From: an uncultured Candidatus Saccharibacteria bacterium
Lineage (GTDB): Bacteria; Patescibacteriota; Minisyncoccia; UBA6257; Colwellbacteraceae
Assembly (NCBI GenBank): GCA_964392905.1
Contig: CAYMRK010000001.1
Span: 1 to 29,601 of the forward strand
Length of the DNA: 29,601 nt
Reading direction: 5' to 3'
Shown piece after piece: positions 23,191-29,601 of the stretch. Position 1 is the first letter of the stretch. Each line of letters begins with the position of its first letter. The position numbers and the translations under genes are program-made. The notes below the pieces were generated by a model. The model ran no database searches, was not told the origin of the DNA, and saw only the letters and a program-made list of their open reading frames with translations.

Positions 23191-25578
23191 TCATGCAAAC
23201 GCATAGATAGCCTCCCGGATTTCTCCGGTTAGCAAAGTTCCCTTCTGGGGAACAGGTATCGGAAGTTCTTCTCCGGTCTTAGACTTGAAGTCTAGCTTGA
23301 TAGCCTCTGTTATATCGAAGGTATCATACAGATCAGCAAAAGCCTCAGCTATTAACTGCTGACCACAGCGGGCAACATCTGGAGCCGTCAGACCGTAAGA
23401 GTCGTGGATTGTCACAAAGGGAATTCCCTTTGGAAGTCTAGAAACCACCATGGCCAAGTGAGTGGCATCCATGGAATGGGTAACATTAGGGCTATATGCA
23501 CTTAAGTTTCTCCTTACATCTTGTTTGTCCGTGGGGACGCGGTAGTTAATAAAGACCGTCTGATTCTCCAGTGCTACCTGCTTTGTCTTGGTCTTTGGTA
23601 GACGCTGGATTACCTTGAAGCCGTCAGGTAGAAGCCATGAGATCTCAAGGTTCCTATCCATGTACTCCTTGGCTACATCACGATACCATTGCATTAGATC
23701 CGCAGTGGTTCCAAGCAATCCCATGATACAGCTATGGTTATACTCCCTTAGCTCAACAGCATGTACTTTGTCCTCCTTGCTCAAGAAGTTGTTAGGGCTT
23801 GCATTCAAGAGTTCCTCTTGTATCTGCTGACCCATGCCCATGATACTTACGTTATATGGAGTAGTCATGGTATTACGTTTGACTAGCTTGCGTGTAACCT
23901 TTCCTTTCCAATAGGAATCTTCAGGTATCACGGACTCCACACGTTCAAGGACTTTTGTGTAGATGTCGCTTGGTTTACTCATAGGAACCAAGGACACCAG
24001 TTCTGCTGTGCCTCGGTCTCTAACTGTAGTAGCCAAGTGCTGTAGACCATTGCATCTTCCGTCTCGGTTCACTGGAAGCTGGGTGTAGTCCTGCTTACCA
24101 AGGACAATACTTGTGTACTCTATACACCAAGCCAAGAAGCACCATGGTTTATCAGCATCAGTCCACCACTGATACTCGAAAGGATCAACAGCACACTGCA
24201 GAATTCTATTGTGGTTCACTCGAATAAAGGACACACGATCATCAAAGGAAACCTTGTCGTTACCCATAAGGTTAGACCCCTGAATCATATACCAACGCCA
24301 TGCTTCAGAGTCTTTAGGAGATAGCGGTGTACGTTGGTGGAATCTCAAGAGGCTACGTGCCACATCGTTACCCTGAGGATTCAGGGAGGTAGCGATAGAA
24401 TACACTCGGCCTCTATAGTCTAGACGATAGGGAAACCAGATGGCTTCATACTGAGCGAACTTCTTAGCTATGCTCATGGTTCTTAAGAACGCTAGTCGTT
24501 GGCCTACAGTGCGACTGTGGTAAAAGGTTCCGTAGGCTATAGCTGCCTGCTGTTTCCACTCATGAACCACGTCAGGCCTTGTAGCTTCCAGTGTTTTGTA
24601 CTCCACGTAGGACTTCCAAGGCTTCTCTGGTATCACGATATCCACGTCATTCAAGGGAACTGACTTATGGTTAGTCTCATAAGCGTGCTTAAGATGCCGA
24701 AGTATCTCTTGGTTTATTTCCCAAGGCACAGCCCCTTGTTTATTGAGGATCTCTAGGCGGCTACCCAAGGCGCCCTCGGCTTCCAGCTGTATAGCTGTAG
24801 ACTCTTGATGTGTGATAGCCAAAGAACGTAGCGTTAGGTAGCCCCCGTCATCTATGGTAGTCCAAGGCTTCGGAGGACAGACCATTGGCATATACATTGG
24901 GTGCATAGAGGCCATCTTCTCGATGCTACTCAAGACATACCTCATGACCTTTTCTGTCGGATACAATAGGTTCATTGTCTTGGTACCTATTGTTTCCGGG
25001 TGCACCTCAAAGAGACCAGAAGTTTCTATAGCTCCTTTGAGCATAGGATAGCCCACGCTCGTCAGTTCACTGGTAGTTCCACGGAGATCTGTGTGTTTAA
25101 GAGTGTCCTTGTACCATCGTATAGTTCTGTAGTAATAGCGTTTGTTCTTATTTTCTAAAGATTCTACCATGTGGGCGTAGGCTTTAGGCGACTTCTTCTT
25201 TAGAACCACATAGTTGAAGTGATCCAAGAGCAAGTGCCCAAGCTTTATAGACAAGGAAGATATACAGTTAAGGCTCTCGGACTTCTTAAAGTGTGCACGT
25301 CCTGAGAAAGCTGCGTCCATAAGGCACTTAAGAACTATGACCGAGATTTCCGTAGGTGTAAGACATAAGAAGATACCCTTTTGCACATTGCTATTGAAGG
25401 TCGTAGACTTAGCAAAAGTCCTTACGTAGTCTTCCATAGCTGTCATAGCTTTACATAAAATGTAGTTTCCTATGTCTGTGTAACTGAAGGCTGTCTCTGA
25501 ATAGGTTCCTTTGTACTTGGAAACACCAATGTCTAGCCACTGTTGTTCTAAGGCTTCTTGGGTTTCTCTTAAGTCCAT
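23191..25578 (-). CDS. gp1: Single-subunit DNA-directed RNA polymerase (T7 gp1-like), 795 aa
   Basis: DYRGRVY, LNPQGND, motif A DGRCNGLQH, motif B RKLVKRNTMTTPY, PNVTHSMDATH, motif C IHDSY; RBS TAAGGAG. Confidence 0.97.
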   Translation of the reverse strand: MDLRETQEALEQQWLDIGVSKYKGTYSETAFSYTDIGNYILCKAMTAMEDYVRTFAKSTTFNSNVQKGIFLCLTPTEISVIVLKCLMDAAFSGRAHFKKSESLNCISSLSIKLGHLLLDHFNYVVLKKKSPKAYAHMVESLENKNKRYYYRTIRWYKDTLKHTDLRGTTSELTSVGYPMLKGAIETSGLFEVHPETIGTKTMNLLYPTEKVMRYVLSSIEKMASMHPMYMPMVCPPKPWTTIDDGGYLTLRSLAITHQESTAIQLEAEGALGSRLEILNKQGAVPWEINQEILRHLKHAYETNHKSVPLNDVDIVIPEKPWKSYVEYKTLEATRPDVVHEWKQQAAIAYGTFYHSRTVGQRLAFLRTMSIAKKFAQYEAIWFPYRLDYRGRVYSIATSLNPQGNDVARSLLRFHQRTPLSPKDSEAWRWYMIQGSNLMGNDKVSFDDRVSFIRVNHNRILQCAVDPFEYQWWTDADKPWCFLAWCIEYTSIVLGKQDYTQLPVNRDGRCNGLQHLATTVRDRGTAELVSLVPMSKPSDIYTKVLERVESVIPEDSYWKGKVTRKLVKRNTMTTPYNVSIMGMGQQIQEELLNASPNNFLSKEDKVHAVELREYNHSCIMGLLGTTADLMQWYRDVAKEYMDRNLEISWLLPDGFKVIQRLPKTKTKQVALENQTVFINYRVPTDKQDVRRNLSAYSPNVTHSMDATHLAMVVSRLPKGIPFVTIHDSYGLTAPDVARCGQQLIAEAFADLYDTFDITEAIKLDFKSKTGEELPIPVPQKGTLLTGEIREAIYAFA

Positions 25579-25627
25579 CTTAAGACTCCTTAAGTTTTTA
25601 GTTTTTACTTTAGTTTTAACTTAGGTT
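25579..25627 (-). repeat. AT-rich leader with short AAC(C)TAA(A/G) direct repeats
   Basis: Minus strand reads AACCTAAGTTAAAACTAAAGTAAAAACTAAAAACTTAAGGAG. Related units AACCTAAAGTGT-AACCTAAGGTGT-AACTTA occur at about 15148-15180. Confidence 0.55.
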
Positions 25628-25653
25628 CCCCTTAGGAACTTAGTTCGTGACAC
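25628..25653 (-). promoter_or_regulatory. Candidate phage RNAP promoter/operator, copy B (GTGTCACGAACTAAGTTCCTAAGGGG)
   Basis: 22/26 identical to 15193-15218. Lies in the only sizeable intergenic gap (25579-25707), upstream of RNAP. Confidence 0.6.
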
Positions 25654-25707
25654 TCGCGCTTTGGACGCGGGTTTGCGAAAGTTTCGTTTGGAGCTTTGGC
25701 GTACAAC

Positions 25708-25962
25708 CTACGCTTCCATCAGGTTTAACTTTAGGATTGCTGATCTAAGATTACAAAGGTGCCACGCTGGACTCCATTGATCCCGGAATATCAGGTAGCC
25801 TCTAAGGCGTCTTAGATTCAGATCGAATCTTCTGGACACTTCTTCAGAATCGAAATGAACTCCGACCATTTCACCATCGATGACAACAACAGTTCCTCGG
25901 TACTCTTGTTTCGGAAGACCTGGAAGCTTAGCGATAACCTTCTGTCCCACCTGCCAGTTCAT
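25708..25962 (-). CDS. SH3-like paralogue P1, 84 aa, ends ILKLNLMEA
   Basis: WQVGQKV...GTVV...VGVHFDS; shared C-terminal motif; ATGA-coupled. Confidence 0.8.
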   Translation of the reverse strand: MNWQVGQKVIAKLPGLPKQEYRGTVVVIDGEMVGVHFDSEEVSRRFDLNLRRLRGYLIFRDQWSPAWHLCNLRSAILKLNLMEA

Positions 25963-26387
25963 GGGACATCCTCCTCATCGGAGGATACCAAGGCCACAAT
26001 AGAATCCACCAGTTCAGTCTCAAGATACTCAGGATAATCAGCCCCCCAGTCATCCTTGAACAGGAGATCAGCTTCAGCCTTAGCCAACAGGCCAGCCACA
26101 GTTTCTCTGATGTTAGCCATGGCTTCTGAGAACGCGAGGAATCCAGCGTCACGTGCTGCCAAGCGCTCAGAAACAACAGGCCAAGCATCACCACGGATAA
26201 CCATGGATACCAGTTGCTTAGGTTTATCATAGGCGAGCTTAGTAAGGTATCGTCGGAGTTCGCTGGTGGACACTTTGTTAGGCACGAGAGCCTTTCGTAT
26301 CTGGGGTTCCAGCTGCTCCAGTGTCTTGTGCGCCACACGGCGAAGGTTTTTCATTATGAATCGAACGTGCGTTAAGGTGTACTTCAT
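25959..26387 (-). CDS. Hypothetical helical protein, 142 aa, acidic C-terminus
   Basis: RBS ATGGAGGAG supplied by the P2 tail; ATGA-coupled to P1. Confidence 0.7.
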   Translation of the reverse strand: MKYTLTHVRFIMKNLRRVAHKTLEQLEPQIRKALVPNKVSTSELRRYLTKLAYDKPKQLVSMVIRGDAWPVVSERLAARDAGFLAFSEAMANIRETVAGLLAKAEADLLFKDDWGADYPEYLETELVDSIVALVSSDEEDVP

Positions 26388-26390
26388 TGG

Positions 26391-26645
26391 TTACTCCTCC
26401 ATTAGGTTAGTCTTAAGAACTACCGGACGAACAAAGCGTCCCCAATCGTAAGCAAGCCAGACTCTATCAAGAGCCCCCAGTTCTTCATCAGAACTGAAAA
26501 AGCGCACAAAGAGAGCCTGCCCACTATCGTCCTCTGCGGATATCACACGTATACGATAGTACTTAGTGTACTGTGGAACATAGCACCCCAGAGCGCCGAG
26601 GACTATGTAGAGCTCCTGTCCTGGGCGAATACTTCGGACATCCAT
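26391..26645 (-). CDS. SH3-like paralogue P2, 84 aa, ends VLKTNLMEE
   Basis: IRPGQELY N-terminus, same length and C-terminal motif as the other paralogues; more divergent core. Confidence 0.75.
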   Translation of the reverse strand: MDVRSIRPGQELYIVLGALGCYVPQYTKYYRIRVISAEDDSGQALFVRFFSSDEELGALDRVWLAYDWGRFVRPVVLKTNLMEE

Positions 26646-26648
26646 AGG

Positions 26649-26897
26649 CTACTCCTCCATTAGATTACGCTTGAGTATTGCACTCATGAGGCAAGAGACT
26701 GGGAACTCTTGAGCGTCGTCGTATTCAAAGAGTATGTATCCCCTAGACTCTGGTCGGTTTACCCTGTAGACGTTATCCACAGCATCCGAGTCAAAGTGTA
26801 CCCCAACATAAAGCATAGTTTTATATACCACAGTCCCACAGTGTCTTCCGGGTACTAAATAGAGCCTGTCCGTGTAAACTTTCATGCCTACGTGCAT
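26649..26897 (-). CDS. SH3-like paralogue P3, 82 aa, ends ILKRNLMEE
   Basis: HVGMKV...GTVV...VGVHFDS...RGY..F aligns with P1 along its length; RBS GGAGGAG. Confidence 0.8.
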   Translation of the reverse strand: MHVGMKVYTDRLYLVPGRHCGTVVYKTMLYVGVHFDSDAVDNVYRVNRPESRGYILFEYDDAQEFPVSCLMSAILKRNLMEE

Positions 26898-27109
26898 AAG
26901 CTTTTCTCCTCCCTAAAGGAGCACCATCCACACATCCCACTGAACAAGTGGGCACCACACCTGGGACATCCTCCATTCTCAGGCCTCACGCCACCACAGC
27001 GTTCACACTTGTCTCCAGGTGTGACCTGTAGTCCACAGATTCTACATCTGGTTTCCTTAATACCCATAGTTTCTATAGGAGTATCCTTTCGAGTATCTTT
27101 TTTCTTCAT
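26888..27109 (-). CDS. Double zinc-ribbon protein (four CxxC pairs)
   Basis: CRIC, CERC, CPRC, CGWC. Start uncertain: MKKKD at 27109 (GGAG RBS) or MGIKE at 27067. Confidence 0.7.
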   Translation of the reverse strand: MKKKDTRKDTPIETMGIKETRCRICGLQVTPGDKCERCGGVRPENGGCPRCGAHLFSGMCGWCSFREEKSLCT

Positions 27110-28028
27110 TGTATTTATACTCCAGCTCCTTTGATATCCCACGTTCTTTCAGAAACGTAATGACATACTCTGGTTCATAGAACACAATGTCACTTGTGGT
27201 TAAATCATAGTGTCCGTAGTTCCCTGTGTAGGCATAGACCTGTGGTTCCTTTGGTATTCTCTTAGTCACCAAGGTCTCCCATTCAAGAGTCTTTAGTTTT
27301 CCAATGAGATTATCTAGGAACCCAAGGTGCAGAGTTTCCTTATAGGTATGCTGACAGGCATATCCTACAGACAAGTTAGTACACTCAGGTATCACATGGA
27401 TTAACTTAGCGGTATCCGTAAAGGTACCACTCTCGTCGTACCATGTGTCCCCAAGTTTCCTGATTAGATCATCGGCGAACTCCTTAGAACAGCACTGGCC
27501 TCCCATTTGCCAGTTGATTACATCGGTGTAGCCAGCCCTATCGAAAGCTACGGCTCTCTTGAACTGCGTGAAATCTACGAGGGCATCTTTGATGATGCCC
27601 TGGATTCCTTTGCATCCAGTTTCTTCTTCGGCTGTCCATAGATAATAGCCGGGGACTTGAGCCTCAGCTAGACAACAAAGGATTTCACAGCCGGCACCAT
27701 CGTCAGCGCCAAGGCACCCCACGCCTTTAGGCTGGGCACCAAGAAGACCAATAGTGTCAAGGTTCTTCCAGTAACCGAGGTTCTTAGTTCCTCGGTTCGT
27801 AGTGTCCACGGTGTCTGTGTGGGCTGTGAACAAGGTAGCGCTCTTGGAACCATCGGCCATCGGTACTACCCAGTGGTAGTTACCGTAGATATCACACCAA
27901 GGGAGGATGCTTGGAGTGAACTTAGCGAACCACCAGCGCATGAAACGCTGGGTTGCGGAGGGTTCGCCCCGGGGTTTCTTGAGTATCTCAAGCAATCTCG
28001 CAGGCTTGAAGTGTTGTCTTACCATCAT
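27057..28028 (-). CDS. Zinc metallopeptidase, M28/M20 (clan MH)-like, 323 aa
   Basis: Ligand motifs in clan MH order: AHTD, GADDGAG, EETG, FDR, QHT..E. Confidence 0.85.
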   Translation of the reverse strand: MMVRQHFKPARLLEILKKPRGEPSATQRFMRWWFAKFTPSILPWCDIYGNYHWVVPMADGSKSATLFTAHTDTVDTTNRGTKNLGYWKNLDTIGLLGAQPKGVGCLGADDGAGCEILCCLAEAQVPGYYLWTAEEETGCKGIQGIIKDALVDFTQFKRAVAFDRAGYTDVINWQMGGQCCSKEFADDLIRKLGDTWYDESGTFTDTAKLIHVIPECTNLSVGYACQHTYKETLHLGFLDNLIGKLKTLEWETLVTKRIPKEPQVYAYTGNYGHYDLTTSDIVFYEPEYVITFLKERGISKELEYKYNEEKRYSKGYSYRNYGY

Positions 28029-29137
28029 TCAGCCTCCTCTTCGCCATCTTCTTCTATAGTTTCTTTGTCAGCATAAGAAGACCACCCCTCAGTAGATCTA
28101 AATGGGGAGCACCCAGCTCTGTTATATCCGTAAATCTTTCCTGTTGTGGTATCAACATAGTAGCTGTCCCCGTCGATGTAAGGAGCCAGAAGTTTACCGC
28201 TTGGAAGTTTTATGAGTTTCATGTGGCAGTCTCTCAGGCCAGTGGAGTAGCTATAAGTGAAACCTTTGGCTTCTAACAGTTTACAGAAAGCGTTCTCTAG
28301 CTTTCTTGTGGCATCGTTGGTGGTACCACTGACATACACCCGAGCATAGGTGTTATGCTTAAGATTCAGCAGTGCACGAGCACGGGTATTTCCAGTGGTC
28401 GGATGTGTTACATAAGCCAGAGCTATGTCAGAGGAGCAATAGGCTTCCACCGGATGGTGTCCATCTGTGTCATCGAAAGAAACAGCAGCGTATTTCATGC
28501 ACGAGGCACTTACGCTACAGCCATAGTCTCCTCTCTCATAATTGGTGTAAACTTCGGTAAAAATCTCTGGAGCATTGGGGTCATCGCCGCTGACTATCTT
28601 GAAGTAGTCCTCAAGGTCGTGCTCACTATCACTAATAGCATTCAGACACTCCTTAAGAAACTTATTAGAAGGAGTGACGCCGAGGTGTTCCTTGAGGAAA
28701 GCCTGAAGACTGATGTGTAACCGGGGCTGCTCACGAAACATGCGTGTCCATGTGCTGTGGTAATACATGTGTACTGATTGATACAGAGGATTTCCGTTGG
28801 CCTTATCCAGTTTGTAGTCTAAGGTCATTAACTTTAGGAAAGCTGGAGGTTTAACGAACGCCATGCCCAAGCGAGACAGTAATTGCACAAGCTTCCATCC
28901 TGTGTGATCCTTATTCCACTTGGTGGGGAGCTCATGGAGAGTCTCCAAGGGAACAACAAGGGACACATGCTGAGCCTCAGTTAGCAACTGTTTGAGACTA
29001 TTGATGCTGACTGTTGGCCACTGTCCTTTTATGGCCTCAAGGTTCTTGAGGATGTCCTTGGAATCAAGTGTGACATCAATAGCTCCGCCACAGATCTTGG
29101 TCACGGGCTCTCCCTTATAGGTAAACGTGTGTTTCAT
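28025..29137 (-). CDS. Uncharacterised 370-aa phage protein with SCM...HPVEAY...RARALL...ARVY...PYID segments
   Basis: Long ORF, RBS from the P4 tail, ATGA-coupled to the peptidase. I could not assign a function. Confidence 0.8.
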   Translation of the reverse strand: MKHTFTYKGEPVTKICGGAIDVTLDSKDILKNLEAIKGQWPTVSINSLKQLLTEAQHVSLVVPLETLHELPTKWNKDHTGWKLVQLLSRLGMAFVKPPAFLKLMTLDYKLDKANGNPLYQSVHMYYHSTWTRMFREQPRLHISLQAFLKEHLGVTPSNKFLKECLNAISDSEHDLEDYFKIVSGDDPNAPEIFTEVYTNYERGDYGCSVSASCMKYAAVSFDDTDGHHPVEAYCSSDIALAYVTHPTTGNTRARALLNLKHNTYARVYVSGTTNDATRKLENAFCKLLEAKGFTYSYSTGLRDCHMKLIKLPSGKLLAPYIDGDSYYVDTTTGKIYGYNRAGCSPFRSTEGWSSYADKETIEEDGEEEAE

Positions 29138-29139
29138 CT

Positions 29140-29391
29140 TCAGTCCTCCATTAAGTTAGTCTTTAGAATGACAGGCCTAAACCATGTCTCGGGATAATCA
29201 CCAAGGCACCAACGGGAATAAGTAAAAGATAGGGGATTAGAGCCCCTATAACCAATAGCGTACCACCAAGATCCCTGTTCAGAATTACCGGCTCGTAATC
29301 TAGTTTCGCCTACAATGTCAAGGATTTTTCCTTTGTACCACCGGTTATCTCTCGTTCTGAACACTATGCGTTGTCCGATAGTAAAAATCAT
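29140..29391 (-). CDS. SH3-like paralogue P4, 83 aa, ends ILKTNLMED
   Basis: Start moved to MIFTIGQRIV (ATG 29389-29391, overlapping the upstream TGA), which matches the 82-84 aa length of the other paralogues. FTIGQRIV...YKGKILDI. Confidence 0.75.
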   Translation of the reverse strand: MIFTIGQRIVFRTRDNRWYKGKILDIVGETRLRAGNSEQGSWWYAIGYRGSNPLSFTYSRWCLGDYPETWFRPVILKTNLMED

Positions 29392-29540
29392 AGGCCACTC
29401 CCTAGAACCCCAATACAAAAGCCTATCAGAAACAGGCAGATGACAAGGGTGTAGCAGGCGATGAAGCTGGTGGTATCCAGGGTATACCATAGTCCCAACG
29501 TAGGAACCAGAAGAAGGAGCGTTAGGATCAGAAGTTGCAT
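29388..29540 (-). CDS. 50-aa two-TM membrane protein (MQLLILTLLLLVPTLGLWYTLDTTSFIACYTLVICLFLIGFCIGVLGSGL)
   Basis: Hand-translated. RBS ATGGAGG from the P5 tail; ATGA-coupled to P4; almost entirely hydrophobic. Confidence 0.75.
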   Translation of the reverse strand: MQLLILTLLLLVPTLGLWYTLDTTSFIACYTLVICLFLIGFCIGVLGSGL

Positions 29541-29541
29541 C

Positions 29542-29601
29542 TTAAGCCTCCATTAGGTTAGTCTTGAGCACACATGACATGAGGTACTTTGGATTCCAGA
29601 T
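29542..29601 (-). CDS. 3' end of paralogue P5 (…IWNPKYLMSCVLKTNLMEA*), truncated by window edge
   Basis: Hand translation of the last 60 nt gives the same C-terminal motif; LMS..LK.NLME matches P3 closely. Confidence 0.75.
   Translation of the reverse strand: MWNPKYLMSCVLKTNLMEA

Follow-up and report, generated by a model that had tools for sequence, protein, structure and literature searches.

A constant C-terminal peptide on small, fast-changing predicted barrel proteins in the early region of a T7-like phage contig

The stretch of DNA analysed here, referred to as the window, is the entire contig CAYMRK010000001.1 (C1, 29.6 kb), one of the 72 contigs of a 463-kb bin (G000), and its long open reading frames (ORFs) lie on the minus strand without exception. 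It carries a gene for a single-subunit RNA polymerase with 27-29% identity to Autographiviridae-type phage RNA polymerases, namely of podophages that infect Rhizobium, Caulobacter, Roseobacter and Pelagibacter. Because this polymerase is of the T7 type, we read positions 25579-29601 as the early region of a T7-like phage. Followed along the minus strand, this region holds P5 (cut by the end of the contig), a 50-aa hydrophobic ORF, P4, orf370, a gene for a peptidase-like protein, a gene for a zinc-ribbon protein, P3, P2, orf142, P1 and a 129-nt spacer, after which the RNA polymerase gene follows. The five genes P1 to P5, all of which end in the peptide LKxNLME[A/D/E], are the subject of this work. 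Judged by their position upstream of the RNA polymerase gene they are small early proteins, of which the phage has at least five.

An earlier note on this DNA had described five early-region ORFs with the endings listed in Table 1, the four complete ones measuring 82-84 aa, and all five are indeed present on the minus strand with exactly these endings. Near-orthologues are present on three short ENA contigs (L006, L007 and L008; 91-98% nucleotide identity). P4 starts at an ATG overlapping the preceding stop codon, and its orthologue P0003 on L007 is likewise called as 83 aa, while the full-length orthologue of P5 (L007:34-240) measures 69 aa and ends in ELKTNLMED. Orthologues of P2 are found on L006 and L008, and that of P1 on L006 is 87% identical. 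The invariant part of the ending is shorter than the 9-10 residues initially proposed, i.e. it comprises 7-8 residues (LKxNLME plus [ADE]). The Ile or Val ahead of LK, which had been counted as part of it, is replaced by Ser, Lys and Glu in the orthologues of P1, P3 and P5, respectively.

The tail is specific to these genes. A 23-nt consensus of the tail DNA gives three matches at up to three mismatches and none in 100 shuffles, and a degenerate codon pattern together with a six-frame peptide scan of the whole 463-kb bin returns exactly these five sites, each of them in frame and directly ahead of a stop codon (5/5 for both). Neither an internal copy nor one in another frame was found across the bin; a DNA motif kept in other frames by homologues was what the note had named as an observation that would speak against its reading. 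Beyond the tail, all members share a weak N-terminal start resembling G-Q/M-x-V, and an Arg-Pro precedes the tail in P2 and P4. The tail is by far the strongest common feature since the tail-less cores of P1/P3, P2, P4 and P5 are not alignable, and, judged from the sequences, nothing else is strongly conserved across the five.

Several observations bear on the level at which the tail is conserved. At the six fixed positions of the tail (L, K, N, L, M and E) the five copies use CTA/CTT/CTC, AAG, AAC/AAT, CTA/CTG/TTA, ATG and GAG/GAA, corresponding to at least six synonymous and no non-synonymous changes (binomial p = 4e-5, with 18.5% of the sites synonymous). When three tails of a distant second lineage (lineage B, see below) are included, the eight tails show 8 changes that are synonymous and 2 that are not (p = 9e-5). 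The synonymous variation reported earlier for the first Leu and the Asn is thus real and extends to the second Leu and the Glu, while an alternation of AAG and AAA was listed in error, Lys being AAG in every copy. The tail of P1 (ATG GAA GCG TAG) contains no GGAGG Shine-Dalgarno (SD) sequence and no gene follows closely, and still it encodes M-E-A, as does its orthologue. Compared to the near-orthologues on L006, L007 and L008, P1-P3 show no change in their 18 fixed tail codons (expected 2.6; P(0) = 0.07). A conserved RNA structure over the five junctions was not detected, RNAalifold yielding two trivial pairs (-0.12 kcal/mol) and no covariation. Because the changes are synonymous only, because P1 retains the peptide in the absence of GGAGG and because no RNA structure, promoter or terminator is shared, L-K-x-N-L-M is, on the evidence of its codons, under amino-acid selection, as the note had proposed. 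Two nucleic-acid candidates were rejected along the way: a conserved hairpin or an RNase III site in the RNA of the junctions in view of the lacking covariation, and a hidden promoter of the phage RNA polymerase or of the host, as no promoter- or terminator-like site occurs at any tail and the synonymous positions vary.

At the codon preceding LK (25735-25737, 26676-26678 and 29569-29571), three of the five genes encode a hydrophobic residue in the window and a polar one in the sister strain (I to S, I to K and V to E). The corresponding residue remains hydrophobic in lineage B. This shift may be due to chance given the high rate of the cores, yet it is directional.

The cores behave differently from the tail. 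The barrel parts of P1-P3 differ from the sister strain in 13-15% of their residues, and nearly all of the nucleotide changes are non-synonymous. The ratio of non-synonymous to synonymous differences per site (pN/pS; window versus sister strain) amounts to 1.9 for P1 and 3.4 for P3 (orthologues on L006) and to 1.3 for P2 (pooled 1.74), compared to 0.22 for five neighbours (orf142, the N-terminus of the RNA polymerase, orf370, the 50-aa ORF and the C-terminus of the peptidase-like protein; Fisher p = 1.5e-4 for the contrast), and the non-synonymous rate of P1-P3 is about ninefold that of the neighbouring genes. P4 evolves more slowly (pN/pS 0.42). These values suggest that the cores of P1-P3 are under relaxed or diversifying selection.

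Whether the five genes are paralogues, as had been assumed, is only partly settled by homology searches. P1 and P3 are 40% identical (blastp E = 1.8e-13), and with P0008 and P0009, two proteins of lineage B, they form a group of clear homologues (blastp E = 1e-11 to 1e-22). For the other cores homology is not detectable: once the tails are removed, hhalign compares the P1/P3 group to P2, P4 and P5 with E = 0.17, 0.023 and 0.09, respectively, and P2 to P4 with E = 0.2. P2, P4 and the middle gene of lineage B have an extended ending in common (...W-x-R-P-[VF]-[IV]-L-K-T). Hence the five could be very old paralogues that have kept fold and tail, or the tail together with the last strand could have been moved onto different small barrels.

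To describe the cores structurally, AlphaFold2 models were built for P1 and P2 with a shallow family alignment, and P3 was assigned by its homology to P1. For P1 a five-stranded barrel is predicted (strands 8-11, 21-29, 32-37, 57-60 and 72-74) with a mean predicted local distance difference test (pLDDT) score of 74.6, and the P2 model shows the same strand order (strands 11-14, 30-39, 44-50, 61-65 and 72-74) at a pLDDT of 85.6. Both models have the five-stranded, bent, antiparallel arrangement of about 60 residues that defines the SH3-like small beta-barrel superfold. As far as the superfold is concerned, the earlier assignment to an SH3/KOW-like domain is thus correct, with no specific family following from it. 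It had been based on a common start, clearest in P1 and P3, where VG.KV...GTVV...VGVHFDS is indeed shared. The prediction that the four complete proteins have one fold holds for P1 and P2 (models) and for P3 (homology). At the C-terminus the pLDDT drops below 50 (residues 78-84 of P1 and 80-84 of P2), so that the tail is predicted to be disordered in both proteins.

Structure searches retrieve a broad range of small barrels. P1 matches the PHF1/PHF19 Tudor domains, Spt5 KOW, PWWP and NdhS (Foldseek E ≥ 0.1), while P2 matches PsaE, the Tudor domains of SGF29 and ERCC6L2, and Sm. VIA-align ranks domain I of EF-P first for P2 (Z = 7.5), along with eIF5A, Tudor, the C-terminal Tudor domain of PcrA/UvrD and KOW. 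Further matches comprise unnamed small phage proteins (BFVD) and the N-terminal barrels of SNF2-type helicases (ESM Atlas, TM 0.67). The Foldseek E values are at least 0.01 and the Z scores below 8, a range that by the tool's own rating indicates a common arrangement only. The predicted likeness to PsaE, domain I of EF-P/eIF5A, KOW, Tudor and the PcrA/UvrD Tudor domain consists in the five strands and the length of about 60-70 residues, whereas these known domains lack the LKxNLME C-terminal peptide and show no significant sequence match to the window proteins. Among the sequence models, P4 reaches 13.8 bits against Pfam Tudor_2 (E = 0.05; cut-off 31.4), P1-P3 match nothing in Pfam, and NCBIfam and PHROG give no match at E < 0.02. 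The bacterial matches include several modules that bind RNA polymerase (UvrD/PcrA Tudor, KOW), and the resemblance of the predicted barrels to such modules is no more than a lead.

The earlier note did not recognise the family, and significant matches to Pfam, NCBIfam or PHROG models are indeed missing. In a word-indexed search of 5.8 billion proteins and an exhaustive hidden Markov model search of 1.84 billion representatives, the only relatives found were the near-orthologues on L006-L008 and, from one other sample, P0008 and P0009 (38-47% identity to P1; endings VLKTSLTEE and VLKTNLTEE). Their contigs, L009 and L010, contain a third tail as well (FLKTSLTEE) and make up lineage B. Among phage genomes, INPHARED gave no blastn match, and in IMG/VR the alignment and codon-pattern scans returned chance out-of-frame matches only, with no close relatives of the RNA polymerase either. 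A scan of JGI metagenome contigs with the tail pattern gave no small ORF of the P1-P5 type among the matches listed (at least 120), and the family was not found in 60 relatives of the bin. ESM Atlas features of the family lead to unnamed clusters only; a literature search for the tail peptide strings gave no relevant paper, and a topical search no description of such a family. As far as these searches reach, the family is undescribed and narrowly distributed, occurring in a few subsurface and rock metagenomes.

Lineage B shows how array and tail have changed over a larger distance. The layout of its two contigs is related to that of the window: on L009 the zinc-ribbon gene precedes one barrel gene and the first part of another, and on L010 the final part of one barrel gene precedes another barrel gene and a homologue of orf142. 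The gene order differs between the two lineages. The lineage-B tails, too, vary synonymously (ACA/ACC, TTA/CTT). At the Met position, Met is found in all five tails of the window (lineage A) and Thr in all three of lineage B. Such a shift across all paralogues fits co-evolution with a single partner and also fits gene conversion. A sign of recombination or gene conversion is a 62-nt junction found both between the first and second and between the second and third barrel genes of lineage B (L009:459-520 and L010:36-97). Its two copies differ by one mismatch and have unrelated flanks, and each consists of the tail with its TAA stop, a spacer of 3 nt and the 11 codons with which the following gene begins (MTHKF[FV]VGQQV).

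A similar repeat lies close to the window. A 979-nt contig from run X7, a relative of about 90% identity, contains a second perfect copy (38 nt) of the P5 tail with its stop codon and the following ATGCAA, 283 nt past the window end. There is therefore at least a sixth tail-bearing gene upstream, probably with another small ORF starting MQ..., and the repeat at the P5 tail may explain why the assembly stops inside P5. By these repeats the tail junctions recombine, which supports such exchange as a mechanism of family growth, while the amino-acid-specific conservation in lineage A is not explained by such recombination.

Table 1. Features of the early region, the tail-bearing genes listed first.
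Feature	Position	Strand	Length	Ending	Tail codons	Remarks
P1	25708..25962	-	84 aa	SAILKLNLMEA	25711-25734	final gene ahead of the RNA polymerase intergenic region
P2	26391..26645	-	84 aa	PVVLKTNLMEE	26394-26417	tail holds SD of orf142
P3	26649..26897	-	82 aa	SAILKRNLMEE	26652-26675	tail holds SD of P2
P4	29140..29391	-	83 aa	PVILKTNLMED	29143-29166	tail holds SD of orf370
P5	29542..29601	-	last 19 codons in window	SCVLKTNLMEA	29545-29568	tail holds SD of 50-aa membrane ORF
orf142	25959..26387	-				helical protein between P2 and P1; pN/pS 0.20, conserved
Zinc-ribbon protein	26888..27142	-				directly upstream of P3; order kept in distant lineage (L009)
Peptidase-like protein	27057..28028	-	323 aa			within array; phrog_4191, E 2.9e-55; distant M28 aminopeptidase similarity
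orf370	28025..29137	-				phrog_13313; translationally coupled to P4 (upstream) and peptidase (downstream); pN/pS 0.28
Hydrophobic (membrane) ORF	29388..29540	-	50 aa			in P5-P4 gap, not a family member; identical in L007
Non-coding spacer	25579-25707		129 nt			between P1 and RNA polymerase gene; repeated CTAAG/TTAAG-rich sequence
RNA polymerase	23191..25578	-	795 aa			T7-type, single-subunit

Among the neighbours in the array (Table 1), orf142 and orf370 are candidate partners of the tails, in both cases by position. In lineage B, the orf142 homologue lies directly downstream of the barrel array (L010:329-688), and no gene in the position of P1 is visible on that short contig. Homology searches detected no relatives of orf142 beyond these phages, and for orf142 and orf370 neither homology nor ESM Atlas searches gave anything usable. 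The low pN/pS of orf142 stands against its fast-evolving neighbours. In the middle of the array (27057-29137), orf370 and the peptidase-like gene form a coupled pair, each member being under purifying selection. For the peptidase-like protein, a role as Glu-specific carboxypeptidase that trims the tails was considered and is not supported, its similarity being only weak and to aminopeptidases.

The tail conservation at the protein level, the fast cores and the barrels predicted for P1 and P2 all fit the earlier proposal of a variable domain joined to a constant C-terminal signal. As to what the signal does, we favour a reading in which each variable barrel displays, exposed at its C-terminus, a constant peptide that docks on one common partner, with the balance of probabilities standing about even. 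Accordingly worded as a model, the five genes would encode SH3/Tudor-like barrel proteins of about 70-84 aa that are produced early by a T7-like podophage, each consisting of a fast-changing barrel and a constant, flexible C-terminal LK-x-N-L-M/T-E-[E/D/A]. This peptide would act as a short linear docking motif bound by one partner common to all members, be it a host hub protein or protease or the phage's own orf142, orf370 or peptidase, while each member would owe a second specificity of its own to its divergent barrel. In addition, the final two or three codons serve as ribosome-binding site of the next gene, and the tail DNA can also be a recombination junction. As in short linear motifs generally, conserved residues are combined with free synonymous sites and, in the models, with the absence of a fixed structure. 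That the tail binds something, as well as the partner and the effect on the host, is inferred only.

A number of points weigh against this reading. The comparison is based on just one independent strain comparison and one distant lineage, a pN/pS above 1 is on its own not significant (p = 0.11), and low AlphaFold2 confidence is not proof of disorder. Moreover, the motif matches no docking or degron consensus that we recognise. The terminal ME[EDA] doubles as the GGAGG/SD of the next gene in four of the five copies, and unrelated genes of the array have EE-rich ends as well (orf370 ...EEEAE, orf142 ...DEEDVP and the zinc-ribbon protein), because GAGGAG falls in frame there. The 62-nt repeat implies that recombination or gene conversion contributes to the identity of the tails in lineage B. 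Since the end residues coincide with the SD sequence and the lineage-B junction recombines, the conservation of the tail has in part an ordinary cause, and the terminal E-[E/D/A] is, by its position, at least co-constrained by the ribosome-binding site.

A special case of the docking peptide, in which the partner is a protease, would make the tail a degradation or processing signal for a host Lon/Clp-type protease or the peptidase of the array. Early proteins of T7-type infections are needed only briefly, and clearance on one schedule would suit them; the motif is C-terminal, exposed and predicted to be disordered, and a gene with a clear phrog_4191 match (Table 1) lies inside the array. However, ssrA-type degrons end in non-polar residues (LAA-COOH type), whereas the tails end in the acidic E-E, E-D or E-A, and the peptidase-like protein resembles leucyl aminopeptidase only weakly (E = 0.09). 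We therefore regard a degron as unlikely. Other known signals do not account for the motif either. The bacterial sliding-clamp-binding consensus is QL[SD]LF, and LKxNLME[ADE] contains neither Gln nor an aromatic residue; by their consensus sequences, none of the SSB-type, ssrA-type and clamp-binding C-terminal signals fits.

The ordinary causes named above can be extended to the whole tail, which would then be kept mainly as a nucleic-acid gene junction of about 25 nt, serving as the next ribosome-binding site and as homology for cassette shuffling, with the peptide as a by-product. Four of the five tails have an in-frame GGAGG within their final codons, 6-8 nt ahead of the next start, and the repeats with unrelated flanks in lineage B, the 38-nt copy in X7 and the gene order varying between the lineages are what such shuffling would leave behind. 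It does not explain, however, that the synonymous sites of the fixed codons are saturated without a single amino acid having changed, nor that P1 keeps the peptide in the absence of SD and downstream gene. Furthermore, ahead of the SD the copies agree in only about 70% of their nucleotides, which would not suffice for homologous recombination to be efficient in lineage A, and a conserved RNA fold is absent. Together this renders the junction quite unlikely as the main cause.

An elaboration of the docking peptide, which we hold to be improbable enough to be mentioned mainly for what it would imply, is that of an adaptor set in which each barrel picks a different host target, such as a defence protein or a component of the transcription machinery, and the tail delivers the barrel-target pairs to one effector (the peptidase and orf370 as a pair, or a host protease or hub). 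If true, the set would combine a diversifiable binder with a common handle for host takeover or counter-defence. The least probable option is that the tail is a self-assembly element that supplies a neighbouring barrel with an extra strand or a short helix to yield homo- or hetero-oligomers. Oligomerisation via edge strands is common among small Sm/Hfq- and SH3-type barrels, Sm is among the P2 matches and residues 71-80 of P2 still have a pLDDT of about 75, but the monomer models leave the final 5-7 residues unplaced, and if the tail bound barrels that change so fast it would be expected to co-vary with them, yet it is constant.

For a constant terminal peptide on different proteins there are precedents in other phages. 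T4 marks the internal proteins IPI, IPII, IPIII and Alt with a short N-terminal capsid targeting sequence, which the prohead protease removes. Hereby, a constant terminal peptide likewise directs diverse, fast-evolving accessory proteins to a common destination; in contrast, the T4 tag is N-terminal, cleaved and found on late, virion-packaged proteins, whereas the tag in the window is C-terminal and on genes of a T7-type early region, so that it does not qualify as a capsid targeting sequence. The tails of T4 gp43, gp55 and gp33 dock on the gp45 clamp, and the acidic tails of T7 gp2.5 and gp4 on the DNA polymerase. In these cases, too, different proteins of one phage use a similar short flexible tail to reach one partner; unlike the window tails, theirs are either hydrophobic-aromatic or acidic with Phe as the last residue, and the proteins that carry them act in replication or transcription and do not form a family of barrels of about 80 aa. 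As a proposal, the design principle is plausible.

Small orphan genes fill the early regions of phages, and for this array the sequence evidence for a variable domain with a constant terminal peptide is unusually clean, the peptide being under amino-acid selection and the domains changing at the neutral rate or faster. If the tail is a docking handle, its partner would assign a pathway to an entire set of orphan proteins, and an invariant terminal peptide on divergent small barrels would provide a search rule for other phages. A practical limit is that the phage is uncultured and that the family comes from the few metagenomes named above.

Near-identical DNA occurs in hydrocarbon, rock and subsurface metagenomes. 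The G+C content of the contig (0.48) equals that of the bin. Because its tetranucleotide profile is outlying within the bin (r = 0.62 compared to about 0.88), the host link is putative, and the phage contig may have been binned by composition or coverage only. Three other contigs of the bin (C16, C17 and C25) are tetranucleotide outliers as well, and the relatives of the bin have genomes of 0.4-1.3 Mb.

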